NCBI GenBank assembly: GCA_035221665.1
Contig: CM069147.1
Coordinates: 25,606,001-25,670,000, forward strand
DNA: 64,000 nucleotides
Source: Okamejei kenojei
Taxonomy: Eukaryota
Reading direction: 5' to 3'
Below the pieces are notes generated by a model. The model worked only from the letters and a program-made list of their open reading frames with translations. It did not search any database and was not told the DNA's origin. Shown in pieces: positions 1 through 61,897 of the stretch. Numbering within the stretch: position 1 is the first letter of the stretch; each line of letters begins with the position of its first letter. The position numbers and the translations under genes were made by a program.

Positions 1-1829
1 TCTTACTTTAACTACATAAAACATGTATACCCGAACCGTTGGTGTTGGGCCTGGAGAAAAGTATACAGTCTCCGTCGCTAATGGGATCCTTATTATTTAT
101 CAAGAAAGAACTAACATGTAAAAGCAACGAGGTTGTGCCATTGCTTTTGGATAGAAAGTACGTCCAGTGCAAGATTGGGCAAATAAGTTAAGGGCAATGT
201 TTACAATGCTCTCTCTCCATTAGCTTTCCATTTCAATTTCATATTTTCAACATTCATCTGGGGGGGGGGGGGGGGTGCTGCTATTAATTCCCATTGGAAG
301 CCCGCGTACTCGCACAGTTATCTCCAGCGCGTTTCCTCCGACTGAGCCAGGTCAACGGGCTCGATTTCCTATGTCTTTTCTGAGACATTGTTTGACATTT
401 TCTGATAATCGCACGTTCTGTAATCGCAAATTTCACTGGACCTTAATTGGTACATGTGACAATAAACTGACCTTGAAACCTTGAAACGTATCGCTATTTC
501 TATAAGCACCCTCTACTTCAACATGTTTGCCTCCATCATAGTTTGGTCCTCAGCCATGCATGCTCAATTTATCAGTCTGCTGCTCTGAAATCTCGTCCCA
601 ACACCCACCTGGAACAAGAAGAGCTTTCTCCTTGTCCATAAGGTCAAGGTCATAAGGAATGGAGTAGAATTAAACCATTCGGTCCGTCAAGTATACTCCA
701 CAATTCAATCATGGCTGAACTATCTCTCCCTACTAACCCCACTCTTCTGCCTTCCCCCCACAGCATCTGACACCTGTACTAATCACGAATCTATCTATCT
801 CTGCCAATAAAATATCCACTGACGGCCTTCGCTAGCAAATTATTCCACAGATTCACCAATAATCTGTAGGTAATCTTAAGTAATTTTAAATGCTGCAGAA
901 TTAGTAATGAGTTCGAAAAAAACCCATTATTTCAATTGGAAACCTGAAACTCTCAGACCAATAAAACACTGAGTGCCAGTTAGCAAGTCCAAGGCAGAGA
1001 AAACTTCAGAAGGATGATTTAACAGGCCTGGGGTTCCTTGAGAAGGGCAATCGCCAACTTGGACTCAACAGCGACACATCTAGTAGAGCTGCTGTTTCAC
1101 AGCACCAAAGATACAAGTTCAATTCTAAATTGGGCCCTGACAAATGTAGAGTTTGCACCCTCTCCCTGTAATCATGTGGGTTTTCTCCTGGTGCTCCAGG
1201 TTTCTCTCACACCCCAAAGACGTGTGGATTTTTGCAGCAGCAATCGAGACTCCATGATAGGTTATAAGGGATAGGAGAAGAATTAGGCCATTCAACCCAT
1301 CAATTCTACTTCGCCATTCAATCGTGGCTGATCTATCTATCCATCCTAACCCCACTCTCCTGCCTTCTCACCATAAGCTCTTGTACTAATGAAGAATCTA
1401 TCTATCTCTGCCTAAAAAAATATCAACTGACTGCCTCCACGGCCTTCTTTTAATTATTTAATTTTGAGGCTATGACCTCTAGTCCTAGACTCTCCCGCAA
1501 GTGGAAACATTCTCTCCACATGCACTCTATCCAAGCCTTTCACTATTCTGTATGTTTCAATTAGGTTCCCCATTCTTCTGAACTCCAGCGAATACACGCC
1601 CAGTGCCGACAAACGCTCAACATAGGTTGACCTACTCATTCCTGGGATCATTCTTGTAAACATCTTCTGTACTACTACCCTCTAATCACATGGAATCATG
1701 CTCTATATTTTAAGCGGCCATCGCAGTCATGGCACCAGCTGACCGCTGATCTCCCTCTCCTTTCTTTATCGGAAAGGCATTGTTTCACCACAAATCATCG
1801 TCACTCTCCTGTATCTGCGAGCACCTAGT

Positions 1830-1986
1830 TGCCTTCTCACCATACCTTCGCATTCAGCGATAATATTGTAATGTTTGCCCTTTCAAAACTTCCATTAACA
1901 CCACACAGGGTGCCTTCTCATCGTACCTTCGCATTCATCGATAGATATTATAATGTTTGCCCTTTCAAAACTTCCAGTAACACCAT
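1830..1986. repeat. Two-copy about 80-bp tandem duplication, left arm only
   Basis: TGCCTTCTCA...TACCTTCGCATTCA...AATGTTTGCCCTTTCAAAACTTCCA.TAACACCA occurs twice; single copy at 59045-59115. Confidence 0.8.
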
Positions 1987-2064
1987 CTGCGTACTCCCGC
2001 CAGAGTTAACCTTTTCTGATTTTAGTTACGACAGTAAATTTGGTGAGGTCTATTGCACTTGGGG

Positions 2065-2340
2065 TACACCAGCTGTAGAGATACTGCCTGAACAGCGCCA
2101 GAGACACAGGTTTGATCCTAACCATGGATGCTGTCCGTGTGGAATGTGTATGTTCTCAATGTGACCGGGTTGTTGTTCTTCGGGTGATACGGTTTCCTCC
2201 CACATCTCTTAGATGTGGAGGTGTGAAGGCTAATTGGCTTCTGTAAATTGTCGGCAGTGTGTAGTGAGTGAATTAAAAAGTGTTCTAACAGAGAAATATA
2301 TGCCGGTGATCGATGATCAACGTGGACTTGGTGGGCTACC
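2065..2340 (+). mobile_element. Decayed V-SINE (orthologue at 58690-58950, minus strand)
   Basis: ACAGCGCCAGAGACACAGGTTTGATCC...GGTTTCCTCCCACA. Confidence 0.7.
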
Positions 2341-2903
2341 TCAATGAAGTCACAAAAAACGCATTATGGAATATCTTCCAACTACATTGACTAAAACTTT
2401 AGACCTGAAAAATGAATTCAACAATTTCAGAAAATTGGAAGTAAACTGGCAGTTTCTATGAATGAAAATAATGGCATAAATTCCAGATGCTGGGCGCATA
2501 AAATTAACAAAACATAGAAATGTCTAGGAGCACAGAACAGATCAGACAGATCAGAGGAACGCCCATCAGCCGGAATTATCGCTACTCCGTATTGTATGTA
2601 TGACCGTTCGAACATTTTCTTATTTCTCCTTTCTTTTCATTTTCCTCTTCTGTTTGAATCTCATCACAGTTCAGTAACAATGATAAAAGAAAACATCGAA
2701 CAGCGTATGTTATTAAATCTCCCTTAGCCTCTGTCTTCAGGCTTGTTGGTTTGGTCCCTTGGAACTTGAAATATGTGGATTACTATCGCTCTCCAATCTC
2801 CAAGGTTACAGTGATAAGACTGAAAATTATTTTACATATAAACAGAAAACAGTGCCCTTATTATGCAGGGAAACAGCTTTACAAGTATTTGCTGAGACGA
2901 CTT

Positions 2904-3073
2904 ATAGACAATAGACAATAGGTGCAGGAGTAGGCCATTTGGCCCTTCGAGGCAGCACCGCCATTCAATGTGATCATGGCTGATCATCCCCAATCAGTAC
3001 CCAGTTTCTGCCTCCTCCCCATATCCACTGACTCCTCTATTTTTAAGAGCCCTATCTAGCTCTCTCTTGAAAG
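2904..3073 (-). mobile_element. Short CR1 3'-end fragment, left arm only
   Basis: (ATAGACA)n-type tail followed by GGTGCAGGAGTAGGCCATT CR1 3' UTR. Confidence 0.8.
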
Positions 3074-3512
3074 CTTGTTGGTGTTCTGTGTGCTGTCCTG
3101 GTCATCCTGCTATACGTTGCATGTAATTGTTAGAAAAGGTGCAGAAATTATTTACCAAGGTATTAGCTGGAGTTATCCGGTGATGCCGAGTAGGTTGTGA
3201 TCTCTTCCCATGTGGCATAGGAGGTTTACCTAATTCAAGTATATAAAATTATGATGGTCGTAGAGAAAGTGAATGATTACAGTCGTTTTAGTCAGGGTAA
3301 TGGATTTTGAACATGGAAGATGAGGAGGGGCCCTAGGGGCAATTTCTTTCCGAGGAAGCGACAGAAGCGTATACAATTGTGATTTTCAAAGGATATTAGG
3401 ATAGGGGAAATAGGTCAAACGCGGGCAGACGAGTCTAATCCGGAATGCCAACTTGCTTGACGTCGACAGGGCGGGTCGAAGGGTCTTGCCTCCATGCTGT
3501 ATAGCTCTATAT

Positions 3513-6500
3513 AATAGTAAGATTAAATGAGAACTTACCAGTTGAAGTTTGATCTTTATTTTATGAGGAGTTACGATGAGGGATTACGTGAAGACCCCGC
3601 CAGGACGCATGCGCGACATTCTTCAAAGCAGTGGTGTGAAATCACAGATACCAGAGTAGACTAATATAGTAAGATAAGAGAGAACTTCCATACCAGTTGA
3701 ACTTTATAATAGAGGGTTTTGGAGCGGAGGGCACGTAATCCCTCATCGTAACTCCTCATAAAATAAAGATCAAACTTCAAACTGGTAAGTTCCCATTTAA
3801 TCTTACTATTTTACTTCGGAGTCACGTGAGTGACTACGTTGAAGATTTCAAAGCTCTGTGATTTCATGCCTGGAACGAGACCATGCTCACACACTGCCAT
3901 TCTGGGACGGAGGATGAACGTATTTCACACACGACACTGTGCTGAAAAACAATAAAGGTATTATTCATACCTAAAATAATATGCCCCACATTGGGTAATT
4001 TATTTTACAGAACTTAATTTTTCCCTGCAAACGTCTCAGGATCGACCAGGGTTTATTATAAAGCATTGAATGCGTTCATTGCTCCACCCCGCTGTGGCAA
4101 GTATGTGGTCCATAGGAACTCCCATCATCCTAGCGTCCGATGTAGATGCAGCCCTGTTGGAGTGAGATTTGAAACATTAGTATTCACCACTGCACGTAAA
4201 TACCACCCGAACCAATCTGGATATGGTTTGCACTGTGACCTTAGGTGAGGGCATTTATGGCTAATGAGAAAGCTCTCTCCGTGCCCATAAGTGTCTTAGT
4301 GACTATATATTGGAAAGTATGTGTCACTATGCAGAGCCGACTATCTGCAGGATAGGCCAGAACTCTAATATTGGCCAAAGGAACCGGGTCAGTCTAGTTT
4401 AAGTACCCCTGTATGTAGTAGGTTATCTGCCATTTGTGACAGACATGACGTCCTATTCTAGCTTGTGTAAGGACTGGACCCGTTGTGCTGATCCAAGTGC
4501 CATAATCATTCCATCTAGGATATTAGTTTGTCCAGAGTGAGCCCCGATATTGGTGTCCATCCTCGTAACATGGTGTACTACCTATGTCCCATATATGGGT
4601 GTGTCTGGGCCTGGGAGGAATAGAGTACAAATACCCCTCATTCGTTTAGGTACTAGTGGGTGTGATCCTATAGCCAGGTGATCACTCCCTCTGCCCAGAT
4701 ATTAGATAGGGCACTCCTTGCACTAATGGCACTGTAACTCAATCCTTCATCGACATGAAGGGTGGCCAGAACTCCAGCACTTCAGTGTTGGTGGCTGAGT
4801 CATATGTAGTGTTCGTCCTGGTGCAGAACACTTCCCATTTCCTGACATATGTCAGGTACTGTCTTCTCGTGGACTCCCTGCACGACGCTGAGATGGCATT
4901 GATCGTCCTGTCGGAGAGTCTGTATCCCAGAAATGGCCTGTTCAGAAACTGCAAATCAACAAGTACATACAGTCATGGCACGGATACTTTCCCGCACGGG
5001 TGTGTGCCAACCTCCTTGGCCGTTGTTGATCCAGATGCAGGGTTCTGAGACCATCTTTGTACTGTTGGGGAACCATGGTACCCGTTGCGGCGTCTTGTTT
5101 AATTATTGTAAGACTCGCCTGATGAGGCAGAAGGGGGAAAATGCATAGCAAAACAAATCGCCCCCCCCCCCCCCCACAATGCAGCGAGAAATCGTCCATC
5201 GCTGCTGCCCCTGGGTCTGGTTCCCAAGCAACATATGTTGGTAGTTGGTGAATTAGTCCGGATGGAAAGAAGGTCGATATCTGGTGTCCCATACCGGTCT
5301 ATAATATCTGTAAACACTTTCCGATCCAACATCCATTTAATGTTGTCGTTGAATTTACGTGACCTGATGTCTGCCACTGTATTTAGCTTACCTGGAAGGA
5401 AAGTGGTTGAGATCCAAATCTCTCTCCCAGACACCAGTGCCAGATATTATTAGCAATTCATCACATGATATCGACTTTATTTCACCCATATGATTATATA
5501 TAGGCCCCCAGTGTGGTATCAGTCTGTACCGTACATGCAACTGGTGCTCATCTGAGCAGTAGGCCCTGAGTCCATGAAACACTCCCAGCATTTCTAGATA
5601 ATTAATTCCTAGTGCTTTAAACAGAATAATTTTTGTGCACTCATCTGCCACCACAACTTGCGGTGGTATTAGTTGCTCCCCAACCTTTAGCACTGGCATC
5701 TGTCTGTAATGTACCCTAGGGATATAGAATGGGTTGATGGGGTTAGGATAATATGGAACATTTCTATCCACCAGTTTAATTCTAATTTACTTTCCTGGTA
5801 GATGCATAGGCCTATTGAAATGGCCTGTATGATTTTTGAGAGCTAAAATTTCCCTCTTCCAGGTTTTAATATGGAGTGGTCCAATTGTGCTGCTGGGAAC
5901 GCAGCCACCAATTCCCAATCACTCTTGCTCCTTGCCGAATGGATGGTTCCCTGATGCCAGTGAGGCTTTTGCATACTCCCATCAAGTCTGTCACTTTGTT
6001 TGGTGGCAAGGTGATAGACATATGAACAGAGTCAATAGTGAACCCAAATAATCCATGGTAGTGGAGGGTTCCAATTTTGATTTATCTGGATGTACGTTAA
6101 ATCTCTGTGTTGTGGCTGATACCACCAATGTAGCCAGCTCCAATTTTCACCTACAATGAGAATATCATCAAGGTAATCCATGACGATATGGTTATGTTTC
6201 TTTAAGTATGCTAAAGCTGGTTTAATAAATTTGTAATAGCCTGGGTGCTGATGACAACCCATTGGATAAGGCATACTGCCATTGCTGTCCCATCCAGATA
6301 AATTTCAGGTATTTACGATGACCCTGTGTGTGACAAACGTGTCTATTTTGAAATGGGCATACTGAACGGAAGTATTTAGTTTGGTCAAATCTGTAATGAT
6401 ACGGCAACCACCATCTTTTTAGTTTTTTATAAATATATTTGATACGAACTCTTGAAATTCTCTGATTGTTTTCTCAATCCCTTTTGTGTTTAGTCTTAAC

Positions 6501-8125
6501 AGTTCAGCATGGCCTGCTGTTCTCTCTTTTTGTGAAATATGAACTTCCTGCTAGGCGTATGCTGAACTGGGACGGTAGTTCGTATACAAATTCAATTTTG
6601 TCATTCTGAATACTTCCGAGTATGTAAAAGTTCAGAGGTAAAAGTGCAGCACACATGATGAAACAAGTGCAACCGTCCCCCAACTTTAATGAATCGGACA
6701 TGCAATGTTTTTTTAAGACAACCAGACCCACCTACCTCCATGGTTACCGGTGTTGTGTGGGTTTGTCTCCACAGTTGTTTATTCTGGTATTGTGTTGCTG
6801 CATTGTGGGGTTGGCGCATTTTCCATGAAGGCCGGGCTGGGCCATGGTCTGAAAGACCGCTGTGCAGGTGGGCCGGCCTTCGAGCTTTCACCACCAGATG
6901 GTCTTCCATAGCACCGATGTCTGGTGGGTGTGTAGGGGTGCTGCCGCTGTTGATAGTGGGTTTTAGAGGTGCTTGGCACCTTGATCAGGCCTATAGCCTT
7001 GGCTTCCTCATGCAGGTCTTTCACCTGCTTCGGGAGGTCCCCCAACAGCAATTTTGGCGCCTGTGTGCTAACTTGTCTTGCATAATTCCGCACTTCTTGA
7101 TGATGCTCTTCCTGTAACTGTAAATCTCCACTGAGTATTACACAGTCTTCTAGAGCATCACGTAACTCTTCAGGCAAATCAACCCCATCAGTTGTCCTGG
7201 TACTGCTGTGATTTTAGCAGCCAGCAGTTTCCTCTGGAGCTTCACCTCCTGGCTCCTTATAGATGGGCTCCTGTTGCCCCAGATGGGGTCATAGACTGCT
7301 GGTACTTTAAGAGAAATGGAGTTCTCTGGAGCAATGTACTTCCCAGCCATAAAGTTAATGGCTTGCTCCTGTAGCTGTTTTGTAGCCATGTATTTTGTAC
7401 TGGCTTGCAGCTTTGTATAGGCAGTCCTTCTTGAGTTGATACAGCATGTGTCCCACAATCTTCTGCTGCTCTCTCTTCTGGCACCCCTCACAGTTGACTG
7501 TTCAGCCATTGCCCCTTCTTCAGGGTCAGCCCAGCTCTGACCCCTAATGCTCCCCTGCGAAGAGGGTGAGACATTTGGCAGTCCTTGAAAGGATCCTGCT
7601 GTGGGTCTGCGAAGAGACCCACTGTGACTCTGCCCCTGCATAAGCAGGTCACGCTGGAGCACTGCTCCCCACCCGCTCCCGCGGGAAAGACGCCCGCCGT
7701 CGCTATCTGTGAACGGGGTGTCTTCAGGTCCGGACCCAGCCGAGTCAACGGACCTGTCCGACTTCCGGGTGGTTTTGCCGCCGACCGCGGCGCACCTGCG
7801 GTCTGTAGCGGCGAGAAGCCGGGAGCTGCTGGCAGCACCTGCAGCTCTGGAGAGACGGCACGCTGCTGGCTGCTTCCACAGCAGCGGTATCAAGCTGCTG
7901 CTCTCCCCTGCGCGACTCCATGGTGCTTCCTCCTGAAAAAGAAATTACACCGGGTCGCCACGCTCACCAGAAAAGGTAAGACTTACCTTCAGTAATTTTT
8001 CAAAATTCGCGCTGGAGGAGCGGCGCTCCTCCCGACTGTCGCTTCCGCAATGCGTTCGACGATATGTCGCGCATGCATCCTGGCGGGGTCTTCACGTAGT
8101 CACTCACGTGACTCCGAAGTAAAAT
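3513..8125 (-). mobile_element. DIRS1-type tyrosine-recombinase retrotransposon, full-length but frameshifted
   Basis: Minus-strand fragments: gag-like (7893-6779), RT (HIVMDYLDDILIVG), RNase H (WISTTFLPGKLNTVADIRSR), MT-like segment (GTPDIDL...QLPTYVAWEPDPGAAAMD) and YR N-terminus (STRRQYLTYVRKWEVFC). ITR 3585-3619 vs 8064-8098. ICR 3732-3840 is complementary to both termini. No TSD. Empty site in the right arm near 57646. Confidence 0.93.
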
Positions 8126-8536
8126 CAGAGATAAACAGCGAGTTCAATCGTTCGCTATTAAAAAAACATACAAACACAACTGTCATCTTTGCACAATGTC
8201 TCATACTAACCAGTATCTAATTACCTAGACTGGTCATACCTTTTCATTTCAACGAAGACACGCTCACTATCTTCATTCAAACTTTTAAAACGGTCTGGCG
8301 TACGTTTTGGCTGGGAATTCATGAAATGCCTTGACATGAAACAGACATTATTGAAGGTATTAACCTCGTACTCATTCCAAGAATTCTGTGAGTTTCAACG
8401 GTCGGAACCAGGAGGGTGGCGTGAGACACGTTGCAACTATAAACCGATCGACTATCCACTACTTGCAGGAAGCTGGAAACAAGGTATAATCCTTCATCGT
8501 TCCGTATTTTAGTGGTACTTATTCCAGAAGTGATTT

Positions 8537-11500
8537 AGAAACATAGAAACATAGAAACATAGAAATTAGGAGCAGGAGCAAGCCATTCGGCCCTTCGAGT
8601 CTGCACCGCCATTCAATATGATCATGGCTGATCATCCACCTCAATATCCTTTACCTGCCTTCTTTCCATACCCTCTGATCCCTTCAGCCACATACAACTC
8701 CCTCTTAAATATGGCCAACGAACTGGCCTCAACTACCTTCTGTGGCAGAGAATTCCACAGATTCACCACTATCTGTGTGAAAAACGATTTTCTCATCTCG
8801 GTCCTAAAAGACTTCCCCCTTATCCTTAAAACTGTGACCCCTTGTCCTGGACTTCCCCAACATCGGGAACAATCTTCCTGCATCTAGCCTGTCCAACCCC
8901 TTAAGAAATGTGTAAGTCTCTATGGGATCACCCCTCAATCTTCTAAATTCCAGCGAGTACAAGCCGAGTCTATCCAGTCTTTCTTCATATGGAAGTCGTG
9001 CCATCCCAGGGAATCAGTCTGGTGAACCTTCTCTGTACTCCCTCTATGGCAAGAATGTCTTTCCTCAGATTAGGAGACCAAAACTGTACGCAATACTCCA
9101 GGTGTGGCCTCACCAAGACCCTATACAACTGCAGTAGAACCTCCCTGCTCTACTATTCAAATCCTTTTGCTATGAATGCCAACATACCATTCGCTTTCTT
9201 CACAGCCTGCTGCACCTGCATGCCTACTTTCAATGACTGGTGTACTATGACACCCAGGTCTCGCTGCATCTCCCCTTTTCCTAATAGGTCACCATTCAAA
9301 TAATAGTCTACCTTCCTGTTTTTGCCACCAAAGTGGATAACCTCAAATGTATCCACATTATACTGCATCTGCCATGCATTTGCCCACTCACCCAATCTAT
9401 CCAAGTCATCTTGCAACATTCTAGCATCCTCCTCACAGCTAACACTGCCCCCCAGCTTTGTGTCATCCGCAAACTTCGAGATGTTGCATTTAATTCCCTC
9501 GTACAAATCATTAATGTATATTGTAAATAGCTGGGGTCCCAGCACTGAGCCTTGCGGCACCCCACTAGTCACTGTCTGCCATCCTGAAAAGGACCCGTTC
9601 ATTCCTACTCTTTGCTTCCTGTCTGCCAGCCAGTTCTCTATCCACCTCAATACTGAACCACCAATACCGTGTGCTTTAAGTTTGTATACCAATCTCTTGT
9701 GTGGGACTTGTCAAAAGCCTTCTGAAAGTCCAGATATAGCACACCCACTGCTTCTCCCTTATCCACTCTATTAGTTATATCCTCAAAAAATTCCACAAGA
9801 TTCGTCAGACATGATTTACCTTTCGTAAATCCATGCTAACTTTGTCCAATGATTTCACCACTTTCCAAATGCGCTGCTATCCCATCTCTAATAATTGACT
9901 CTAGCAGTTTCCCCACTACCGATGTTAGACTAACTGGTCTGTAATTCCCCGTTTTCTCTCTCCCTCCCTTTTTAAAAAGTGGGGTTACATTAGCTACCTT
10001 CCAATCCTCAGGAACTACTCCAGAATCTAAAGAGTTTTGAAAAATTATCACTAAGGCATCTGCTATTTCTGGGGCTACTTCCTTACTGGGATGCAGCCTA
10101 TCTGGCTCTGGGATCGGCCTTTAATCCATTCAATTTACCTAACACCACTTTCCGGCTAACCTGGATTTCACTCATTTCCTCCATCTCATTTGACCCGCGA
10201 TCCCCTGCTATTTCCAGCAAATTATTTATGTCTTCTTAGTGAAGACAGAAACAAAGTAGTTATTGAATTTGGTCTGCCATGTCCTTGTTCCCCATGATCA
10301 ATTCACCCGTTTCTGACTGCAAGGGATCTACATTTGTTTTAACTAATCTTTTGCATATCGATAAAAACTTTAGCAGTCAGTTTTTATGTTTCCTGTCAGT
10401 TTTCTTTCATACTCCATTTTCCCTTTCCTAATTAAGCCCTTTGTCCTCCTCTGTTGTTGTCTGAATTTCTCCCAGTCCTCTGGTCGGCTGCTTTTTCTGG
10501 CTAATTTGTACGCTTCATCTTTTCTTTGATACTATCTCTGATTTCCTCATTATCCACGGATGCGCCACCTTCCCTGATTTATTCTTTTGCCATACTGGGA
10601 TGAACAATTTTTGTAGTTCATCCATGCAGTCTTTAAATACCTTCCATTGCATATCCACCGTCAACCCTTCAAGAATCAATTGCCAGTCGATCCTGGCCAA
10701 TTCACGTCTCATACCCTCAAAGTTACCTTTCTTTAAGTTCATGACCCGTGTTTTCTGAATTAACAATGTCACTCTCCATCCTAATGAAGAACTCAACCAT
10801 ATTATGGTCACTCTTGCCCATGGGGCCATGTACAACAAGACTGCTAACTAACCCTTCGTCATTACTCAATATCCAGTCTAGAATAGCCTGCTCTCTCGTT
10901 GCTTCCTCCACAGTTGCTTCCTCCACATCAGGAACAATCAACATGGATTTGTGCCTGGAAGGTCATGTTTGACAAACCTTCTTGAATTTTTTGAAGCGGT
11001 AACTAGGGAAATTGATGAGGGTAAAGCAGTGGATGTTGTCTATATGGATTTCAGTAAGGCCTTTGACAAGGTTCCCATGGAAGGTTGGTTCACAAGGTTC
11101 AATCTTTGGGTGTTAATGCGGAGTAGCAAGATGGATTCAACAGTGGCTGAATGGGAGATGTCAGAGAGTAATGGTGGATGGCTGTTTTGTCAGGTTGGAA
11201 GCCGGTGACCAGTGGGGTGCCTCAGGGATCTGTGTTGCGTCCACTGTTGTTTGTCATGTACATCAATGATCTGGATGATGGGGTGGAAAATTGGATAAGT
11301 AAGTATGCAGATGATACTAAGATAGGTGGTATTGTGGATAATGAAGTAGATTCTCAAAGTCTACAGAGAGATTTGGGCCATTTGGAAAAGTGGGCTGAAA
11401 GATGGCAGATGGAGTTTAATGCTGATAAGTGTGAAGTGCTACATCTTGGCAGGACAAATCAAATAGGACGTACATGGTAAATGGTAGGAATTGAGGAATG

Positions 11501-13909
11501 CTGTGGAACAGAGGGATCTAGGAATAACTGTGCATGGTTCCCTGAAGGTGGAATCACATGTAGATAGGGTGGTAAAGAAAGCCTTTGGTGTGCTGGCCTT
11601 TTATAAATCAGAGCATTGAATATAGGAGTAGGGAAGTAATGTTAAAATTGTACAAGGCATTGGTAAGACCAATTCTGGAGTATGGTGTACAATTTTGGTC
11701 GCCTAGTTATAGAAAGGATGTCAACAAAATAGAGAGAGTACAGAGGAGATTTACTAGAATGTTGCCAGGGTTCCAGCAACTATGTTACAGAGAAAGGTTG
11801 AACAAGTTTAGGTCTTTATTCTTTGGAGCGCAGAAGGTTTAAGGGGGGACTTGATTGAGGTCTTTAAAATGATGAAAGGGATAGACAGAGTTGACGTGGA
11901 TAAGCTTTTCCCATTGAGGGTTGGGAAGATTCAAACAAGAGGGCATGACATGAGAATTAAGGGACAGAAGTTTAGGGGTAACGTGAGGGGGAACTTCTTT
12001 ACTCAGAGGGTGGTGGCTGTGTGGAATGAGCTTCCAGCAGAGGTGGTGGAGGCAGGATCGATTTTAACATTTAAAAGTAAAGTGGATAGGTATATGGACG
12101 TGAAGGGAATGGAGGGGTATGGTCTGAGTGCAGGTAGATGGGACTAGGGGGAAAACAAATGGTCGGCACGGACTGGAAAGGGCCGAGAGGGCCTGTCTCC
12201 GTGCTGTAATTGTTATATGGTTATATGGTTATATGTTGGTTTAGAAAACTATCCCGCATACATTCCAAGAAATCCTCTTCCTCAGCACCCCTGACAATTT
12301 GATTCACCCAATCTATATGTAGATTGAAGTCACCCGTTATAACGGTTTTACCTTCGTTGCAAGCATTTCTAATTTCCTGTTTGATTTCATCCCCAACTCC
12401 ACTACTACTGTTAGGTGGCCTGTAGACAACACCCGCTAGCCTTTTCTGCCCCTTAGTGTTTCGCAGCTCCACCCATATCGATTCCACATCCTCCAAGCTA
12501 ATGTCATTCCTTTCTATTGCGTTAATCTCCGCTCTAACCAGCAATGCTACCCCACCTCCTTTTCCTCTCTGTCTATCCTCCTGAATATTGAATATCCCTG
12601 GATGTTCAGCTCCCAGCCTTGTCACCCTGGAGCCATGTCTCCGTGATCCCAACTATATCATAAGTATAATAGCTATCTGCACATTCAACTCATCCACCTT
12701 TTAACGAATGCTCCTTGCATTGAGATACAAAGCCGTCAGGCTTGTTTTTACAACATTCTTGGCCCTGTTACAATTATGTTGAAAAGTGACCCTTTTAGAT
12801 TTTTGCCCTGGATTTGTTTTCCTGCCACTTTTCACCTTGCTACCTATTGCTCCTATCCTCATTTTACACCCCTCTGTCTCTCTGCTCACACATGTAAGAA
12901 ACCCTCCACTTCTTATTCTCCATTTGTTTATTTTTTTTTCTTCTTTCCTCCGTACGTGTTGCGTCTGACTGCTTTTCTTCTCTGCCTCCTGCCTCACACA
13001 CGGACTACTTGCCTTCTCTATTTGAGTCCCTCCCCCCAACCGATCTAGTTTAAAGTCTCCCCAGTAGCCTTTGCAAATCTCCCCGCCAGGATATTGGTTC
13101 CCCTCGGGTTCAAGTGCAACCCGTCCTTTTTGTACAGGTCACACCTTCCCCAAAAGAGGTCCCAATGATCCAAAACTTGAATCTCTGCGCTCTGCACCAG
13201 TCCTTTAGCCACGCATTGATCCTCCCCTTGCTCCATTCCTACTCTCACTGTCGCGTAGTACAGGCAGTAATCCTGAGATTGTTACCTGTGCGGTCCTTCT
13301 CCTTAACACTCTTCCTAACTCCCTAAATTCTCCTCTCAGGACCTCCTCTCTTTTTCTACCTATGTCATTGGTACCTATATGTACCACTACCTCTGGCTCC
13401 TCTCCCTCCCATTTCAAGATATCTTGGACACGTTCAGTCACATCCTGGACCCTGGCACCAGGGAGGCAAACTACCATCCGGGTCTCCTGACTGCGTCCAC
13501 AGAATCACCTATCTGACCCCCTAACTATAGAGTCCCCTATTACTGCTGCCCTCCTCTTCTTTTCCTTACCCCTTCTGAGCAACAGGGCCGGTCTTTGTAC
13601 TGGAGGCCCGGTCGCTGTTGCTACAGGTAGCTGTGCCCCCAAACAGTACTCAAACATGAGTACTTATTGCCAAGGTGTACAGCCACCGGGGTACTCTCTA
13701 GTCCCTGCCTCTGTCCCTTGCCTCTCCTAACCGTGACCCACTTTTCTGCCTCCTGTGGTTTTGGTGTGACCACCTGTCTGTAGCTCCTCTCTATGGCTTC
13801 CTCACTCTCCCTGACCAGACGGAGGTCATCGAGCTGCTGCTCCAGGTACCGAATACGGTCCATTTGGAGCGCCATCTTGACGCACCTGGTGCAGATGTGG
13901 ACGTCTGGA
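8537..13909 (-). mobile_element. Near full-length CR1 LINE (ORF1 Zn-finger and SGNH esterase; ORF2 EN/RT fragments) inserted in the C1 exon
   Basis: ORF1 DVHICTRC and VVCLPGARVQDV...VVVHIGTNDIG. ORF2 GVVYRPPN, GDFN, NYRPVSLTS, GVPQGSVLGP, KFADDTK. (CATAGAAA)n tail at 8537-8564. TSD GATTT. Confidence 0.95.
10929..12233 (+). mobile_element. 5'-truncated CR1 of a second subfamily nested antisense in the host CR1
   Basis: RSCLTNLLEFFE, GVPQGSVL, KYADDTK. (GGTTATAT)n tail near 12212-12234. The host ORF2 resumes on both sides. Confidence 0.92.
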
Positions 13910-40690: not shown

Positions 40691-40694
40691 AAGT

Positions 40695-48850: not shown

Positions 48851-48912
48851 ACTTTCAATCTATTTAATCACTCCCCCCACCCCGCACACCCCCCCCCCCC
48901 CCCCAAGAAAAC

Positions 48913-49220: not shown

Positions 49221-52200
49221 TAAAGAAAAGCAGAATCCCCATGGTATGGAGGGCGTGCTTGATGCTGGGCGCAATAAGGAGTTTATGGTCAGGGATAGCG
49301 ATTATAAGTATATGACAGGTACAAAATGATGTGGTTCAGTGAAGATATCATCACATTGGAAGAAACAAATAGCGAGGTCGTGTATTTTATAAATAGAGAG
49401 AGTTGAAGGTGTTGAGGTTCAAATGGTCCCGAGCATCACTCGGTGAATGATTGAATGTTTGCTTCAACATTTTTGTCTGTTATGATTCACATGAGTTACA
49501 TATTTTTGCTGCAGACATCTGAGTGTTGGAATCTATCCCAAAGCGTTAAGCGTGATCAACCGCCATATGTACAGAATCTGAACATATGAGCAGCAGCATA
49601 GCGGGTCTGTAGCACAGTACTCAGCAAACAAACCAAAAGAAGGTCAATAGAAAACTATATTAGTGCAAAACAAAAACAAATGCTCCAAAGTTCGGAGTAC
49701 AACAAAGACGGTTCGTATTCGATGTTTGGTTGGTGTTTGTAGTGTATAATAGCCTGATGGTTGTTGGGGGAAAAACTGTTTCTGAGCATGGAGGTCAGTG
49801 TTTTCAAATGCCTAGACCTTCTTCTCAACGGCTTGTGTGCAATTGCAGTGTGGCAAGGTTTTGTCGGGTCTTGATGATGCTGGCTACCTTTTTGGGGCAG
49901 CTTCTCCTATAGATCTCTTCGATCTTTTTGTAATTCCTTATCCTGGGTGTTCGCGTTACCGAACCAGGCCATGATGCAACCTGTTAATACGCTCTCTACC
50001 ATATATTGTAAAGGATTAAGAGTGCTTTCGATTAAAGATGTTGTCAACCAGGAAAGGGTGCAGAGAAGACTTACGAGGATGTTGTCACGACTAGTGGGTC
50101 TGAGCTGTAGGGTGAGGTGGAGTAGGCTATTCATTGATGCGCAGGAGGATGAAGTGTGATCATATGGAGGTTTATAAATTCATGAGAGGAATAGTTCCGG
50201 TAGGTGCACAGAGCCTCTTGGCCAGTGTAGGTGAATCGAGGACAAAATTACATAGGTTTAAGGTGAAGGGGAAAATATTTAAAAGAAAACTGAGGGGGAA
50301 CCTTTTCAGCAAAGGGTGATGGGTATGGAACAAACTGCCCGAGCATGTAGTTGAGACAGGGGCTATACCGAAGTTTGGACGGATATATGGATAGGACAGG
50401 TTTGGAGGGATATGGGCCAAATGCGGGCAGGTGGGACTAGTGTAGCTTGGTCATGTTCGCCGATGTGGGGAAGTTGGGCCGAAGGGCATGTTTCCACAGT
50501 GTATGACTCTATGACTCAATGACAACATATCGAATCTCCTCAATCTTCTTAGAAATTAGAAGCATTGGAGGGCTTTCATATGAATGTATGGATGTGGGGA
50601 GTTCAGGACAGATCTTCAGAAATATGCATGCCAAAAAACGTGAAGTTTTTGACTCACTCCATCACTGACCAGTCAATGAAGACAGGTTGACTATCCTTGT
50701 CCTTCCTCTCCTCAAGTCAACAATCAGCAATCTTACTGACATTGAGAGCCAGATTGTTGTTCCGGCACAATTTGATCAGATGATGGATCTCCCACCTCTA
50801 GTCTGACACATCATTAAAACAATTACCTGTAATTAGTTCATCAACGGTGGTGTAGTCTGCAAATTTACAGGTTGAGTTGGAACTGTTCCGGGTACACATC
50901 CATGGGTATTGTATGAGCACACAGCCTTGAGGTGCCACTGTGCTGATGGTTAGCGAGGAGGAAGTGTGAGGAATGTGACAGCTTCGCGGCATTGCTCAGT
51001 TCCAATCTGGCCTTTTGGGTACATGCTGTTAGAACATTATGGATTATCTCCAGTGATTTCTTCTTTCCTCTGTGTTATTTTCTCTTATAGATGTAGCTTC
51101 TTATTCTTGCGTATGGAGTGCACAGCCTAAAGTTGTAGGACAACTTGTTCTATTTGATATTATTTGATTGTGCACGCCAGGTTGATTGTATTCGTCGAAA
51201 CAGGGCGCACCACGTGAAGGTTGCAATCTCCCACAACCTAGATGTAGCAAGCTGATGTCAAAGACCAATTGGATCACAGCCAATACATCACTCATGCTAA
51301 TTGCACAAAAATCGTCCTGCTCCCTCTCTCTCATCCCACGCTTGCTGTAGTCAAGAAGTAATTCTAAATTTCATTTATCTGGATCCTCATTGTACGTTCC
51401 GTTTGTTGGAACAAATTACAGTTTCCTTTGGGTGTCATTTTCCACAGGTTCAGTGTGAAGCCATTTCTCTACTGCACCTGTTGAGTCATTAAAGGCTACA
51501 TATAGAGTAGTATTTTCGTGCTATTGTATTATATCTGTACCACATCATACCAAGCCAATATTTGTGCCTGTGCACGGAGTTGCAGCCTTACAGCGACAGA
51601 GGCCCGCGTTGGATCCTAGCTACAGGTGCTTGCTGTATGGAGTTTGTACATTTTGATAATAATAAGAGGGCGCCTTCATTTCACCCAGTTGTTATATCAT
51701 TGGAGGGAAGCAATTACGTTGGTTGGTATGATAGTGTAGGACCTATAATTATCCTCATCTTTTTACATAAGCTAATGTGAGATGTAATGTCTTAATTTCT
51801 CAATTGTCCATCGTTAGTCCACTTGGGTAGATAACCCTCTAATCGACCTGAAAGATTATGATTTACTTAATCAGCCAATTTCTATACGTCATCATTCCTA
51901 GCTCAGACCTCGACCTATTACCCTTGATCTATTTTTGATCTATTGCTACTTGGTCATAATTTGATATATGTTCCTGAATATATTTGGCATTGGGTTGACA
52001 CCTGTGCAAGAAATGAATTTAGAGGGAAATTAAAGGAAAATGAAAAGCGGAATCTTCGCAGGTTTTCTTCAAGAGATATAATGGGGCGATGGCGGCTGTT
52101 AACTGCTCACCAGTTTTTTGACTTCACAACAGATTTAGCCGACAGTTATACTGTGCAGTAAACAACTTTTGTTTTTTGTTAGTATATTTTTGTATAGTTG

Positions 52201-53671
52201 TATCTATCTACTACATAGGTATCAATTATTTCATTAGTCATAACATACCTTTTGTTTATGACAATCTTATTCAATCTTAATACAAGTCAAAAACAATACA
52301 TGGGCATCTTGATATTATTCTACCTCACCTTTTAGGTGGACCGTGCCACCATCCCTTCGCCGAGCGATCCATAAGCTCCCCATTTACTGCAACGTTTCTA
52401 TGCTACAAACGGCAGGGGGTGAGGGTGGTCTTCTGAAACACACTGCTGAGAGAAAGAAGCTTCCTGAACTGCATCTACTATTTCATCTTTACATTTACCA
52501 TCCACCCTTCAACACATTCCCAGACAAGAGATACTACGTCGAATCTTACTTTGCCGATTCCCACGAACCTCTTCTGTAGCTGGAGTCCAGCTGCTGGACA
52601 ATGAGAGATGCCAATTGGCACACACAAACACCCTGCCATTACCTTGTTCATTTCCAATCAAAATTAAGTAAGAAAGGATATTTTCTTCCACAACACGTTT
52701 TACAAAAATAAACGCTATCATTGAATACAGTCCTAGAGCACGAAAACAGACATTTCAGCAGAACTTTGCAATGCTGACCGAGAAGTCCCACCGTAATTGG
52801 CCCATATCCCTCAAAACCTTTCCCCCCTTGTATCCGTCCAAATGTCTGGTAAAATCACCTGCCTCAGCGACCTCATCTGGCACCTCATTCCATATACCCA
52901 CCAGCATCTGCATGAAAAGGATGCCACTTAGGTTCTTGGTAAGTGTTCCCCTCTCCCCTTCCCATGATTTCAGTCCACAAAATACAACATTCTACCATCA
53001 CCCTTTGCTTCCTTACATGGAGCCATTTCTCTACCCATAGTAAATCGTTTTGAAAACATACGGGACACACACAAATTCCCTGGCGGGCCGATGACAAGTG
53101 TGCATGACAACGAACAATTTTATCTCCTCCCACTACACCCTCCTTGACAACAAGAAGCACGTTTTATTTATTACCGTCTGGCTGCCTGCGTAACGCACAC
53201 AACCTCGCACACACAAAAACACCAGATAATCTGTAAACTGCTTTAACTGAAGATGGACACAAAAAGCTGGAGTAACTCAGCAGAACAGGCAGCATCTCTG
53301 GAGAGAAGGACTGCGTGACGTTTTAGGGTCGAAACCATTCTTCAGACCTGAAGACTACGTCTGAAAGGTCTCGACCCGAAATGCCACTCATTCCTTCTCT
53401 CCAGAGATGGTGCCTGTCTCACTGAGACACACCAGCATTGTGTGTCCATCTTCGGTGTGACAGTTGTCTCATTTAATCGGCTTCATGTATTGTGCGCATG
53501 GAAGAGACGCTTTACATGCCGCTTGCATCTATTCATTTGCGAGAGAGGGATGGACTGGATGTGACCACTAGCGAAAGCAAAGACATAGTTAGTACAGGGA
53601 AATAATCCCACTACTTAATTAACCAGGTTCCCGAATGTTAGATCTATTTATACATGTAACATTTTTGTTTT

Positions 53672-56502
53672 TAGAAACATAGAAACATAGAAATTAGGTG
53701 CAGGAGTAGGCCATTCAGCCCTTCGAGCCTGCACCGCCATTCAATATGATCATGGCTGATCATCCAACTCAGTATCCCGTACCTGCCTTCTCTCCATACC
53801 CTCTGATCCCCTTAGCCACAAGGGCCACATCCAACTCCCTCTTAAATATAGCCAATGAACTGGCCTCAACTACCCTCTGTGGCAGAGAGTTCCAGAGACT
53901 CACCACTCTCTGTGTGAAAAAAGTCTTTCTCATCTCGGTCTTAAAGGATTTCCCCCTTATCCTTAAGCTGTGACCCCTTGTCCTGGACTTCCCCAACATC
54001 GGGAACAATCTTCCTGCATCTAGCCTGTCCAACCCCTTAAGAATTTTGTAAGTTTCTATAAGATCCCCTCTCAATCTCCTAAATTCCAGAGAGTATAAAC
54101 CGAGTCTATCCAGTCTTTCTTCATAAGACAGTCCTGACATCCCAGGAATCTGTCTGGTGAACCTTCTCTGCACTCCCTCTATGGCAATAATGTCCTTCCT
54201 CAGATTTGGAGACCAAAACTGTACGCAATACTCCAGGTGTGGTCTCACCAAGACCCTGTACAACTGAAGTAGAACCTCCCTGCTCCTGTACTCAAATCCT
54301 TTTGCTATGAAAGCTAACATACCATTCGCTTTTTTTCACTGCCTGCTGCACCTGCATGCCTACTTTCAATGACTGATGTACCATGACACCCAGGTCTCGC
54401 TGCATCTCCCCTTTTCCTAATCGGCCACCATTTAAATAATAGTCTGCTTTCCTGTTTTTGCCACAAAAGTGGATAACCTCACATTTATCCACATTATACT
54501 GCATCTGCCAAACATTTGCCCACTCACCCAGCCTATCCAAGTCACCTTGCAGTCTCCTAGCATCCTCCTCACAGCTAACACTGCCCCCCAGCTTAGTGTC
54601 ATCCGCAAACTTGGAGATATTGCCTTCAATTCCCTCATCCAGATCATTAATATATATTGTAAATAGCTGGCGTCCCAGCACTGAGCCCTGCGGTACCCCC
54701 ACTAGTCACTGCCTGCCATTGTGAAAAGGACCCGTTTACTCCTACTCTTTGCTTCCTGTTTGCCAGCCAGTTCTCTATCCACATCAATACTGAACCCCTA
54801 ATACCGTATGCTTTAAGTTTGTATACTAATCTCTTATGTGGGACCTTGTCGAAAGCCTTCTGGAAGTCCAGATATACCACATCCACTGGTTCTCCCTTAT
54901 CCACGCTACTAGTTACATCCTCGAAAAATTCCACAAGATTCGTCAGACATGATTTACCTTTCGTAAATCCATGCTGACTTTGTCCAATGATTTCACCACT
55001 TTCCAAATGTGCTGCTATCCCATCTTTAATAACTGACTCTAGCAGTTTCCCCACTACCGATGTTAGACTAACTGGTCTGTAATTCCCCGTTTTCTCTCTC
55101 CCTCCCTTCTTAAAAAGAGGGGTTACATTTGCTACCCGCCAATCCTCAGGAACTACTCCAGAATCTAAAGAGTTTTGAAAGATTATCACTAATGCATCCA
55201 CTATTTCCTGAGCTACTTCCTTAAGTACTCTGGGATGCAGCCTATCTGGCCCTGGGGATTTATCGGCCTTTAATCTATTCAATTTACCCAACACCACTTC
55301 CCGACTGACCTGGATTTCACTCAATTCCTCCTTTGACCCACAGTCCCTGCTATTTCCGGCAGATTATATATGTCTTCCTTAGTGAAGACGGAACCAAAGT
55401 AGTTATTCAATTGGTCCGCCATATGCTTGTTCCCCATGATCAACTCACCTGTTTCTGACTGCAAGGGACCTACATTTGTTTTAACTAACCTCTTTCTCTT
55501 CACATATCTATAAAAACTTTTGCAGTCAGTTTTTATGTTCCCTGCCAGTTTCCTTTCATGATCTATTTTTCCTTTCCTAATTAAGCCCTTTGTCCTCCTC
55601 TGCTGGTCTCTGAATTTCTCCCAGTCCTCTGGTATGCTGCTTTTTCTGGCTACTTTGTATGCATCATCCTTTGCTTTGATACTATCCCTGATTTCTCTTG
55701 TTATCCACGGATGCACTACCTTCCCCGATTTATTCTTTTGCCAAACTGGGATGAACAATTTTTGTAGTTCATCCATGCAGTCTTTAAATGTCTTCCATTG
55801 TATATCCACCGTCAACCCTTTTAGAATTAATTGCCAGTCAATCTTGGCCAATTCACGTCTCATACCCTCAAAGTTACCTTTCTTTAAGTTCAGAACCATT
55901 GTTTCTGAATTAACAATGTCACTCTCCATCCTAATGAAGAACTCAACCATATTATGGTCACTCTTGTCCAAGGGGGCACGTACAACAAGACGGCTAACTA
56001 CCCCTTCCTCATTACTCAAAACCCAGTCTAAAATAGCCTGCTCTCTCGTTGGTTCCTCTACATGTTGATTTAGATAACTATCCCGCATACATTCCAAAAA
56101 ATCCTCTTCCTCAGCACCCCTGCCAATTTGATTAACCCAATCTATATGTAGATTGAAGTCACCCATTATAACTGTTTTGCCTTTGTCGCATGCATTTCTA
56201 ATTTCCTGTTTGATACCATCCCCAACTTCTCTGCTACTGTTAGGTGGCCTGTACACAACACCCACCAGCGTTTTCTGCCCCTTAGTGTTTTGTAGCTCTA
56301 CCCATACCGAATCCACATCCTCCAAGCTAATGTCCTTCCTTTCCATTGCGTTAATCTCCTCTCTAACCAGCAACGCTACCCCACCTCCTTTTCCTTTCTC
56401 TCTATCCCTCCTGAATATTGAATATCCCTGGATGTTCAGCTCTCAGCCTACGTCACCCTGGAGCCATGTCTCCGTGATGCCAACTATATCATAATCATTA
56501 AT
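53672..56502 (-). mobile_element. Young 5'-truncated CR1 LINE (ORF2 EN+RT almost complete, three frameshifts) in the V-C1 intron
   Basis: Consecutive ORFs 56373-55321, 55324-54647, 54702-54292 and 54320-53769 with EN and RT motifs. Absent from the left arm (empty site near 14637). Confidence 0.95.
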
Positions 56503-57103
56503 ATCAATGTAACTCTTTTTTGAATTTTAATGCCGAGTTAAAACCCCGTCCCGTGGGAGGGGCTTTGGTAACTGGTTTCATAGTGCCTTCATTGTTGGTC
56601 AGTGCCGTCCCTTCACATGGACCGCTCTCAGTGCCAGTTTTCGCAACTTCCATAGCCGCTCTATATAAGTGCAGTCAGACGTGATGGACGCGGTGGTCTG
56701 GACCTATCGCTGGCAAGTCTGGCCCCTGTGACGTCATGTCCGTTATTTGATTTTTCGGTTGAGTGGCCATTTGGTTACTTGGCTTGTGGGCGACGCAGCC
56801 TTTCGGTTAGTTGGATTTTAGGCGTCAGGCCCTTTCAGTTAGTTTGCATTGAGGCGTACCACCCATTGGTTCGTTAGCGTTTCGGCTTCGTACCCTTTCG
56901 GCTATTTGGCTCCCACTTCTTTGCTTCGGCTTCTCGTCCTAAGACGCCACGTCCGCACACGATTTCCCAACAACATTGTTAAAATAGTTTACTAATAAAG
57001 GAACGCTCAAGAAGTTATGGTATAATCCATTTCGAAAGCGATTATATTGTCTTCTAAATAAGCATATAGGGGAGCTAACTCTTTTATCTTAAATTGTTTG
57101 CAG

Positions 57104-57385
57104 TGTCCCCGATGCCTTTGAAGATTAAACAGATGAACACTCCTTCCCTGGCCCTAAACTGTACAACAGCACCGTTTTTCCCGGAGGACTGTGAACTTAC
57201 CTGGTATAAAGATGACCACAAAATCACTTCTGGAATAAGTACCACTAAAATACGGAACGACGAGGGATTATACCTTGCTTCCAGCTTCCTGCATGTAGTG
57301 GATAGCCGATCGGTTTATAGTTGCAACGTGTCTCACGCCACCCTCCTGGTTCCGACCGTTGAAACTCACAGAGTTCTTGGAATGG
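57104..57385 (+). CDS. Ig C1-set constant domain exon, right copy
   Basis: Acceptor TTTGCAG|, donor |GTATGA, 282 nt, phase 1/1. LNCTTAPFFPEDCELTWYKD and YSCNVSHATL match the C1-set hallmarks CxxxxF(Y/F)P...W and YxCxVxH. Confidence 0.92.
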
Positions 57386-60300
57386 GTATGAGGTTTATAC
57401 CTTCAATAATGTCCTGAGATATATCACTGTTTCATGTCAAGGCATTTCATGAATTCCCACCCAAAACATACGCCAGATCGTTGTTAAGTGTTTGAATGAT
57501 GATAGTGGGTGTGTCTTTGTTGAAATGAAAAGGTATGACCAGTCTAGGAAATTAGATACTGGTTAGTAAGAGACATCGTGTAAAGATGACAGCTGTGTTT
57601 GCATGTTTTTTAATAGCGAATGTTTGAACTCGCTGTTTATCTCTGATCATATAGAGCTATACGCATGGAGGCAAGCCCCTTCGACACGCCCTGTCGACGT
57701 CAAGCAAGTTGGCATTCTGGACTAAAATCATCTGCACTCATTTGACCCATTTCCCCTCTAAATCTTTCCTATCCAAATATCCATCCAAATATCTTTGAAA
57801 ATTACACTTGTATACGCTTCTGTGGCTTCCTCGGAAAGAAATTGCCCCTTGGGCCCCTCTTAATCTTCCATATTAAGATTCCATTACCCTGGGGAAAACG
57901 ACTGTAAGCATTCACTTTCTTTACGCCCATCATAATTTTATATACTTGAATTTGGTAAACCTCCTTTGCCTCATGGGAAGAGGTCACAACCTACTCGGCA
58001 TCACCGTATAACTCCAGTCAAGAATTCCAGGTATTACCTTGGTGAATCCTTTCTGTACCCTTCCTAATTTAATGACATGCTACATATAACAGGATGACCA
58101 GGACAGCACACAGAACACAGAACGAGTCGTCTCAGCAAATACTTGTAAAGCCGTTGATTGCATAATAAGGGCACTGTTTTCAGTTTATTAGTAAAATAAT
58201 TTTCAGTCTTATCGCTGTAACCTTGGAGATTGGAGAGGGATGGTAATCCAACATATTTCAAGTTCCAAGGGACCAAAACAACAAGCCTGAACACAGAGGC
58301 CAAGGGAGATTTAATAACATACGCTGTCATTAACTTCGATGTTTTTTTTTTCATTGTTACTGATCTGTGATGAGATTCAATCAGAAGAGGTAAATGACAA
58401 TAAAGTAGAAATAAGAACATGTTTGAACGGGCACACACACAATACGGAGTAGCGATAATTCCGGCTGATGGGCTTTCATATGAACTGTCTGATCTGCTCT
58501 GTGCTCCCAGACATTTCTATGTTTTGTTAATTTTATGCACCTGTTATCTGGAATTTATCCCATTATTTTCATTCATAGAAACTGCCAGTTAACTTCCAAT
58601 TTTCTGAAATTGCTGAATTTATTTTTCAGATCTAAAGTTTTAGTCAATGTAGTTGGAAGATATTCCATAACGCTTTTTTGTGACTTCATTGAGGTAGCCC
58701 ACCAAGTCCACGCTGATCATCGATCACCGGCATATAGTTCTCTGTTAGAGCACTTTTTCATTCACTCACTACACACTGGCGACAATTTGCAGAAGCCAAT
58801 TAGCCTTCACACCTCCACATCCAAGGGATGTGGGAGGAAACCGTATCACCCGAAGAACACCAACACGATCACATTCCACACGGACAGCATCCATGGTTAG
58901 GATCAAACCTGTGTCTCTCGCGCTATTAGGCAGCAGCTGTACAGCTGGTATTCCCCAACTCAAATAGACCTCACCAAATATACTGTTTTAATTGAAATCG
59001 GGAAAGGTTAACCCTGGCGGGAGTACGCAGGTCCCTGGATTTTATTAATGGCAGTTTTGAAAGGGCAAACATTACGATATCTATCGCTGAATGCGAAGGT
59101 ATGGTGAAAAGGCAAATATGTGCTCGCGGATACAGGAGAGTGAAGATGGTTTGTGGTGAATTAATGCCTTTGCGATAAAGAAAGTAATGGGAGATCAGCG
59201 GTCAGCTGGTGCCATGACTGCGATGGTCGCTTAAGATATAGAGCATGATTCCTTGAGATTAGAGTACGGAAGATGTTTACAAGAATGATCACAGGAGTGA
59301 GTAGGTCAGCCTATGTTGAGCGTTTGTCGGCACTGGGCCTGTTTTCGCTGGAGTTCAGAAGGATGACGGGGTACCTCATTGTAACATATAGAATAGTGAA
59401 AGGCTTGGATAGAGTGCATGTGGAGAGAATGTTTCCACTTGCTGGAGAGTCCAGGACGAGGTCATAGCCTCAGAATGTATAATTAAAAGAAGACCGTGGA
59501 GGCCGTCAGTGAATATTTTTTAGGCAGAGATAGACAGATTCTTCATTAGTACAAATGTCAGAGCTTATGGGGAGAAGGCATCAGAGCGGGGTTAGGATGG
59601 AGAGATAGATTGAATGGCGAAGTAGAATTGGTGGGACAAATGGCCTAATTCTACTCCTATCCCCTATAACCTATCCTGGAGTCTCGATTGCTGCTGCACA
59701 AATCCACACGTCTTTGGGTTGTGAGAGAAACCTGGAGCACCAGGAGAAAACCCACGTCATTACAGGGAGAGAGTGCAAACTCCACACAGACAGGGCCCCA
59801 GTTAGAATTGAACATGTATCTCTGGTGCTGTGCCTCGGACTTGCTAAATGACACTCATTGTTTTATTGGTCTGCGAGTTTCAGGTTTCCAAATGCAATAA
59901 TGGGATTTTTTTCGAATTTATGACTAATTCTGTAGCATTTAAAATTACTTGAGATTTCCTTCAGATTATCGGTGAATTTGTGGAATAATTTGCTACAGAA
60001 GGCTGTGGAGTCCACCAGTGGATATTTAACAGGCAGAGATAGATAGATTCTTGATTAGTACAGGTGTCAGATGCTGTGGGGGGAAGGCAGAGAGAGTTCA
60101 GCCATGATTGATTTGTGGAGTATGGGCAAGGAGGAAGCTCCTTGTCCCTTATACTTATGGACAAGGAGAATGCTCTTCTTGTTCCAGCTGGGTGTTGGGA
60201 CGAGATATCAGAGCGGCAGACTGATACATTGAGCATGCATGGCTGAGGACCAAACTATGATGGAGGAAAACACGTTGAGGTAAGGGGTGCTTATAGAAAC

Positions 60301-60752
60301 AATGATACAACGTTTCAAGGTTTCAAGGTCAGTTTATTGCCACATGTACCAATCAAGGTCCAGTGAAACTTACGATTACAGAACGTGCGATTATCAGAAA
60401 ATGTCAAACAATGTCTAAGAAAATACATATAGGTAATGGAGCCCGTTGACCTGGCTGAGTCGGAGGAAACGCGCTGGAGATAACTGTGCGAGCATACGGG
60501 CTTGCAATGGGAATAGATCGCAGTACCCCAGCCACCCCCCCTCCCCCCCAAGATGAATGTGGAAAATATGATATTGAAATGGAAAGGTAATTTAGAGAGA
60601 GCATTGTAAAGATTGCCCTTAACGTATTTACCCAATCTTGCACTGGACGTATTATCCAAAAGCAATGGCGCAACCTCCTTGCTTTTTACATGTTAGTTCT
60701 TTCTTGATAAATAATAAGGATCCCATTAGCTATGTACCTGCCTTAACTTTAG

Positions 60753-60873
60753 TCACCATTATGAAATACTCTCGCCAGGTACCACCCATTGTATATGTTG
60801 TTATTTGCTTTATAAATCCAATCGTTTAATGTTGGCTGTCTCTTCATCGTTTCGGTTTTCATACGGTACAAAG
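60753..60873 (+). other. Candidate transmembrane exon, apparently frameshifted
   Basis: A phase-1 acceptor (CTTTAG|) gives VTIMKYSRQVPPIVYVVICFINPIV then TAA at 60827. Removing one T from GTTTAAT continues NVGCLFIVSVFIRYK and ends at a phase-1 donor (AAAG|GTAAAT). The segment is deleted from the left arm. Confidence 0.35.
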
Positions 60874-61897
60874 GTAAATGTAAAATTTCCACCTCCCCGC
60901 TACGATGATAACGAGCTCAATCACAGCGACTGGGGCTGTATACTTTTCTCCGGGCCCAAAACCAACGGTTTGGGTGTACATGTTTTATGTAGTTAAGGAA
61001 AGAAAACTGGTGCTTGGGATCAGCTAGACCCTAATTGTACCAAACCTACTGCCGCCCCATTTCATTCCCTGCACAGTTCCATCAACTCCCCACGAAATGA
61101 CCATCACATTAATGACAAAAATAGACACAAAACACTGGAGTCGCTCAACGGGATAGGCAGCGTCATTGGAGAGAAGGTAACATACTTAATGAGTATGTAC
61201 AATGGCCAATGAACCAACAACCCTGCAAGTCGTTGAGGTTTAGGAAGATGTTAGAGTATCCTACGGAAGTAACGTGGTCACCGTGGGAATATAAAAACTC
61301 CAGAGAACACTGGAGGTCAGAATTGACCCAGGATCTCTGGAGATGTGAAACATCCGATTTACTAACTGCGAAGATGTGCCAGGAGTAGATCTTCCGCGGG
61401 GTGGCATAACGTGACTTATGTCTACATTGTTCAAACCATTTTGAAGGCAGGGATAGTGCACGTGCAACACCTCGATGGTGCATCAATGATTGGATCGCCA
61501 AACCCGCTCAGAGATATATCACAACTCCGAATAATTCTAATCTCTTGTTGATAAATGAATCATATCGACTGCAGTTATCTTTCCAAAATTTCAACAGTCG
61601 GTCGATATGTCAATTAAACAGCCTTTACGATGTTAATGATCCCAACACTAAGAAGGCACAGACCCGAAACCCAGTAGCATAATCTATTTTACCGAATACA
61701 AAATACATTACAGATCGTGCACGAGAAATCGTGTTTTTATGCCCAGTGTAATTCATTTTTGATGTGTTCACTCCAGGTAATTCGTTTCCTTAAATTGTAT
61801 ATTTTGAATTGGAGGTTTCCTCGCTGTCACCAGTGACACGGCAAAACGGGGAGAGGGGGTGACAAGCGCATCCGTACAATGTCAAAATAGATTGTAG

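Follow-up and report, generated by a model that had tools for sequence, protein, structure and literature searches.

The window, a 64,000-nucleotide stretch of Okamejei kenojei (GCA_035221665.1, scaffold CM069147.1, positions 25,606,001 to 25,670,000), contains two copies of an IgSF receptor gene on either side of a 500-N scaffold gap (Table 1; eight-digit coordinates in the text are scaffold positions). The right copy is a non-rearranging VJ-C1 receptor, because its V-set domain (Pfam V-set, E = 5e-11) and a G-x-G J-like motif share a single exon, ending GNGARIIVN before a GT donor, it has a C1-set exon (Pfam C1-set, E = 2e-13), and none of 15 RSS-like motif hits lay within 300 bp of the 12 V intervals in the 664 kb surveyed. 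Its tail is encoded by three cytoplasmic exons beyond the window. The second of these, the penultimate exon of the gene, has 88 bases versus 87 in two paralogues, producing a frameshift as assembled, either genuine or introduced by the assembly; one tyrosine motif is retained upstream of it. The left copy is a pseudogene, since CR1 elements split both its V and C1 exons, its transmembrane (TM) segment has acquired polar residues, and a search for its last two exons did not find them. The CR1 inside the left V exon differs by ~2.5% from other copies and is therefore younger than the divergence of the two sides.

Many repeats are specific to one side of the gap. A sequence-only reading of the window had named DIRS, CR1 and Penelope elements as side-specific; this holds for the DIRS-type element and the CR1s, while Penelope comes down to one short match (26813-26896). 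Window positions 31323-32177 hold a dispersed repeat of no assigned class, at least 850 bp long, that recurs many times elsewhere in the assembly on other scaffolds. In the flanks, there is a fairly intact DIRS-type element with reverse transcriptase and tyrosine recombinase (L048:3303-7684) and a stretch that we take to be LTR-retrotransposon-like (L055:3600-6000).

Table 1. Features of the window (window coordinates)
Feature	Position	Strand	Remarks
Left arm	77..31063		End of left contig; one unit of tandem VJ-C1 array; inverted chain
DIRS-type retrotransposon remnant, left-specific	3516..8123	-	Reverse transcriptase, RNase H and tyrosine-recombinase matches
Left copy, C1 exon	8372..14031	-	Split by 5,378-bp composite CR1 (8532-13909), AAATC on each side
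Left copy, VJ exon	21888..24253	-	Split by 2,042-bp CR1 (22121-24162) right after first cysteine codon
Left copy, leader exon	24450..24504	-	
Left contig end, error-laden	29854..32169	+	Overlaps start of next-but-one contig in same orientation
500-N scaffold gap	32178..32677		Likely false join
Middle contig start, 27 kb	32679..59524	+	Repeated, error-laden, in same orientation at far end (25744473-25771990)
Right arm	36178..60730		Start of 133-kb reversed middle contig
Right copy, leader exon	44583..44637	+	
Right copy, VJ exon	44839..45162	+	Single V-set exon; GNG J-like motif within same exon
Insertion with LINE-type reverse transcriptase, right-specific	46792..50006	-	
Young CR1 LINE in V-C1 intron, right-specific	53674..56497	-	1% from another copy in the region
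Right copy, C1-set exon	57104..57385	+	
Right copy, transmembrane exon	62768..62878	+	No charged residue

Layout and sequence place these genes among elasmobranch receptors that carry automatic names. In a word-indexed protein search for longer relatives of the V exon, none of 241 candidates passed; a HMMER scan did find such relatives, and the nearest database proteins are from sharks and rays, with V domains 43-52% identical (e.g., XP_072135199.1 and XP_067905923.1). Elasmobranch VJ-C1-TM receptors named SIRP-alpha-like, tapasin-related-like and NCR3LG1-like have the same leader-VJ-C1-TM-tail layout and several tyrosine motifs; the names are automatic, and the likeness is one of sequence and layout. 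As in SIRP-alpha-like inhibitory receptors, the TM segment is uncharged and the cytoplasmic tail carries tyrosine motifs, four of them in an intact paralogue. This architecture suggests that intact family members would be inhibitory receptors signalling via their cytoplasmic tyrosine motifs. SIRP has a V-C1-C1 ectodomain and NKp30 a V domain only; with one C1 exon each, the array genes lack the ectodomain of the SIRP family proper.

The genes also resemble, and differ from, other relatives of antigen receptors. UrIg and UrIg2 are non-rearranging antigen-receptor relatives, and UrIg2 has at least nine C1 domains, nine in nurse shark, according to PMC12227049. UrIg2 as described there likewise has VJ in one exon followed by C1, and among solved structures it ranks second as a match to the C1 exon (E = 1.3e-14), but it is absent among the 29 V-exon matches, and the array genes have a single C1, a TM segment and a tyrosine-motif tail where UrIg and UrIg2 have several C1 domains. 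Joined-VJ IgSF receptors include SIRP, NITR, NKp30 and PRARP in PMC11599192, and joined-VJ genes are likewise listed in PMC10751288. What these four have in common with the array genes is that the V exon contains the G-x-G J-like motif and that the copies are clustered and of birth-and-death type; their domain counts differ from those of the array genes. A literature search returned work on UrIg, the CD28 family and mammalian SIRP and nothing on this family, which the UrIg 2023, Ohta 2019 and PRARP papers or their supplements may describe.

The two copies belong to a receptor array that extends well beyond the window. In the window plus 300 kb on each side (664 kb of scaffold) we distinguished six gene types, labelled A-F, and three 500-N gaps, at 25509004, 25638178 (the gap in the window) and 25771991; the last two bound the 133-kb contig that carries the right arm, hereafter the middle contig. 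An intact A-type paralogue ~200 kb away (25430904-25445772) has leader, VJ, C1, TM and tail, the last with the four tyrosine motifs TYADI, TYGQV, TYTTL and EYAGI. An A-type remnant at 25484305-25487926 retains C1 and tail exons, and leader, V and TM exons were not found in it. Between the right and left copies, 21 of 25 V differences fall in amino-acid-changing codons, as do 7 of the 15 C1 differences scored, a contrast between small numbers. The gene types and the exon comparison support the earlier suggestion of a birth-and-death immune cluster. A search of 100 kb on either side turned up no flanking marker gene. A related cluster lies on the same scaffold at 20.36-20.76 Mb; its 11 matches to V exons and 8 to C1 exons do not all face the same way.

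Sequence left of the gap recurs inverted on the right. Self-BLAST recovered the two arms as a collinear inverted chain flanking the gap, running from 77-999 paired with 60730-59828 to 30919-31063 paired with 36318-36178, and so bore out the inverted recurrence as a property of the assembly. The chain comprises 20 pieces with a mean identity of 87.1%, and takes in 14,314 of the 32,177 bases on the left and 14,255 of the 28,053 on the right; the unmatched part of both arms is mostly arm-specific insertion. Earlier counts of exon differences between left and right copies (25/324 in V and 16/282 in C1) were reproduced exactly. Of the ~61-kb palindrome proposed for positions 1..61003, the inverted match stands and the extent does not, since homology continues past both window ends (25,568-25,637 kb against 25,712-25,643 kb, and further); that interval also misses the TM exon of the right gene.

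The arms are real and distinct sequences. They differ by 8.9% substitutions, of which transitions make up a share of 0.49, and by 8.5 short indels per kb. This share and the scarcity of indels uphold the view that simple duplication of a contig would not give arms so diverged. We rejected false homotype duplication as an account of the arms, since differences of the read-error kind only are limited to contig-end overlaps (transition shares 0.15, 0.19 and 0.24). Of the properties of a genomic palindrome, real and distinct arms are present, with transition-rich divergence and both arms found in two samples, but the assembly itself speaks against a head-to-head joint on one chromosome, as the left contig end overlaps a different contig and the right contig start matches its own far end. 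The arm orientation depends on the 500-N join, as had been pointed out before.

Gene polarity isolates the middle contig as the sole reversed piece. In the other contigs, every A gene reads minus and every B-F gene plus, and the middle contig shows the opposite, with A on the plus and C and D on the minus strand. Homology of the middle contig to the other contigs (collinear chains of at least four pieces) amounts to 151,148 bp, all minus, and homology among the other three contigs, counted the same way, to 85,738 bp, all plus. From this pattern it follows that the inverted match reaches far past 61 kb, with its limits falling exactly on the two gaps.

Contig ends show where the sequence on each side of the gap belongs. 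The end of the left contig (25635854-25638169) dovetails in the same orientation with the start of the next-but-one contig (25772497-25774823), the overlap lying within 8 and 6 bases of the contig ends. Identity across these 2.3 kb is only 75-78%, but the differences are like read errors (transition share 0.15; short indels, 83 per kb), a pattern distinct from that of the arms (Fisher P ~6e-22, on counts back-calculated from rates). Judging by this error pattern, the two sequences would represent the same locus. The dovetail was the only full-length match among the 57 matches listed when the last 1.2 kb of the left contig was compared genome-wide, and its partners have a dispersed-repeat insertion site in common, while paralogues lack the repeat. 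The first and last 27 kb of the middle contig match each other in direct orientation (transition share 0.24, 41 short indels per kb), and the far-end copy runs on into a C-type gene, not into the left arm. Against the left contig end, the start of the middle contig is 10.7% different with a transition share of 0.50, the level of paralogues. The two sides of the gap thus do not point at each other, since the left overlaps another contig and the right matches its own far end. The frameshift-riddled A-type gene at 25756400-25769800 is an error-laden duplicate of the right copy. At 25498782-25519794, ~10 kb occurs on both sides of the 25509004 gap; the two versions differ in the read-error pattern (transition share 0.19), and this is another unmerged overlap.

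Reversed polarity confined to the middle contig, the overlap of its flanking contigs and the 27-kb identity of its own ends all point to an artefact of layout. A loop excised from a tandem array by an assembler yields a contig with the same sequence at both ends. In the reading we prefer, the arms are real copies, ~9% diverged, of one tandem VJ-C1 unit, and their head-to-head layout is probably due to scaffolding: the assembler would have cut the 133-kb contig out of the array as a loop, possibly joined via a 10-kb near-identical block between C- and D-type genes (a candidate entry point), and the loop would then have been set backwards between two contigs with mutually overlapping ends. The chromosome itself would carry both copies on one strand, separated by about one 106-kb unit. 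The competing account, a real inverted duplication offered as one option by the sequence-only reading, has the 133-kb segment truly inverted in the chromosome and the assembly broken at its breakpoints. It agrees with the assembly's own placement, with the reality of both arms, and with the presence, at other places in the array, of adjacent genes of different types (A minus, B plus) that also stand head-to-head. However, the left contig continues in the contig after the next gap, so that the overlapping flanks leave no room for the segment, and an inversion predicts near-identical inverted ends shared with the neighbours, where the middle contig instead departs from the left contig end at paralogue level and matches its own far end. 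We therefore regard it as very improbable, and a true 280-kb inverted block within the array as equally so.

Evidence from sequencing runs bears on whether the arms are paralogues or alleles. Over window positions 24200-44150 we compared four runs, three from the same species (two samples from two studies) and one from a related species. All three same-species runs contain stretches from the left as well as the right arm, differing by 0-5 substitutions over 320-460 bp. The related species has right-arm pieces at 95-97%, including pieces of a segment that the right arm has and the left lacks (5 differences in 181 bp and 8 in 246 bp); these are closer to the right arm than the arms are to each other, which we counted in favour of real copies. 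At L025:1324-1388, contigs of both same-species samples skip a 63-bp stretch, and a 3-4% divergent version of the adjoining sequence in one sample indicates that the locus is polymorphic. Apparent heterozygous sites were rejected as proof, since many read letters match paralogues.

The middle contig could alternatively represent the other parental haplotype, a false heterotype duplication in which the arms are alleles and the palindrome is still an artefact. Such a duplication has a gap between the duplicated pair, and gaps do lie on both sides of the middle contig (25638178 and 25771991). After circular permutation, the contig runs collinear with a complete unit along the flanking path (106 kb versus ~111 kb), and it differs from the next contig by 0.3-2.3% over most of the 10-kb block and by 3-7% around it. 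Polymorphism between samples is visible, and in one run the contig depth of both arms (10-14) is roughly half that of other parts of the middle contig (19-25), which would also suit alleles. Yet this depth pattern is absent from the other two same-species runs and two runs of one sample disagree, an inconsistency for which we rejected contig depth as a test of copy number. The presence of both arms in two samples from two studies weakens the two-haplotype option, which the sequence-only reading had also raised. Arm divergence resembles that of undoubted copies in the array (9.4-12%), and the middle contig has its own old junction, where an E-type gene is absent and the flanks differ by 15-25% from both neighbours, a structure needless for an allele. 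Weighing the other way, no contig bridged this junction in any of the four runs and one sample has a 3-4% divergent version there; with a 390-bp part nearly without cover, the missing bridge is uninformative. We consider the haplotype account unlikely, and it is quite probable that the arms are paralogues rather than deep alleles. Since both this account and the preferred loop reading make the layout an artefact, the palindrome is, on the assembled sequence, very unlikely to exist in the chromosome.

Errors of this kind have precedent: PMC9516828 describes false duplications beside gaps in long-read vertebrate assemblies, both error-driven (homotype) and haplotype-driven (heterotype). The present case resembles those described there in its gap-separated duplicate on one scaffold and in error-laden, under-collapsed contig ends (27-kb, 10-kb and 2.3-kb overlaps). 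It differs in that the arms themselves are paralogue-like, so that the probable artefacts are confined to the overlaps and the placement.

These results change how the locus can be used. The palindrome is unfit as evidence for inverted duplication, shared promoters or arm-to-arm conversion. Gene count and order in the assembly are wrong here: duplicated contig ends account for ~40 kb of the 664 kb examined, and the A-type "pseudogene" at 25756-25770 kb could be annotated as a false pseudogene. A by-product of modest interest for comparative immunology is a set of tandem receptors with single-exon VJ plus C1 and tyrosine-motif tails, known in databases by automatic names only. As a tentative possibility, the loop may mark a copy-number-variable array of little-studied elasmobranch non-rearranging VJ-C1 inhibitory receptors with diversifying V domains, in two clusters on one chromosome, which would be a living relative of the architecture of the antigen-receptor precursor.
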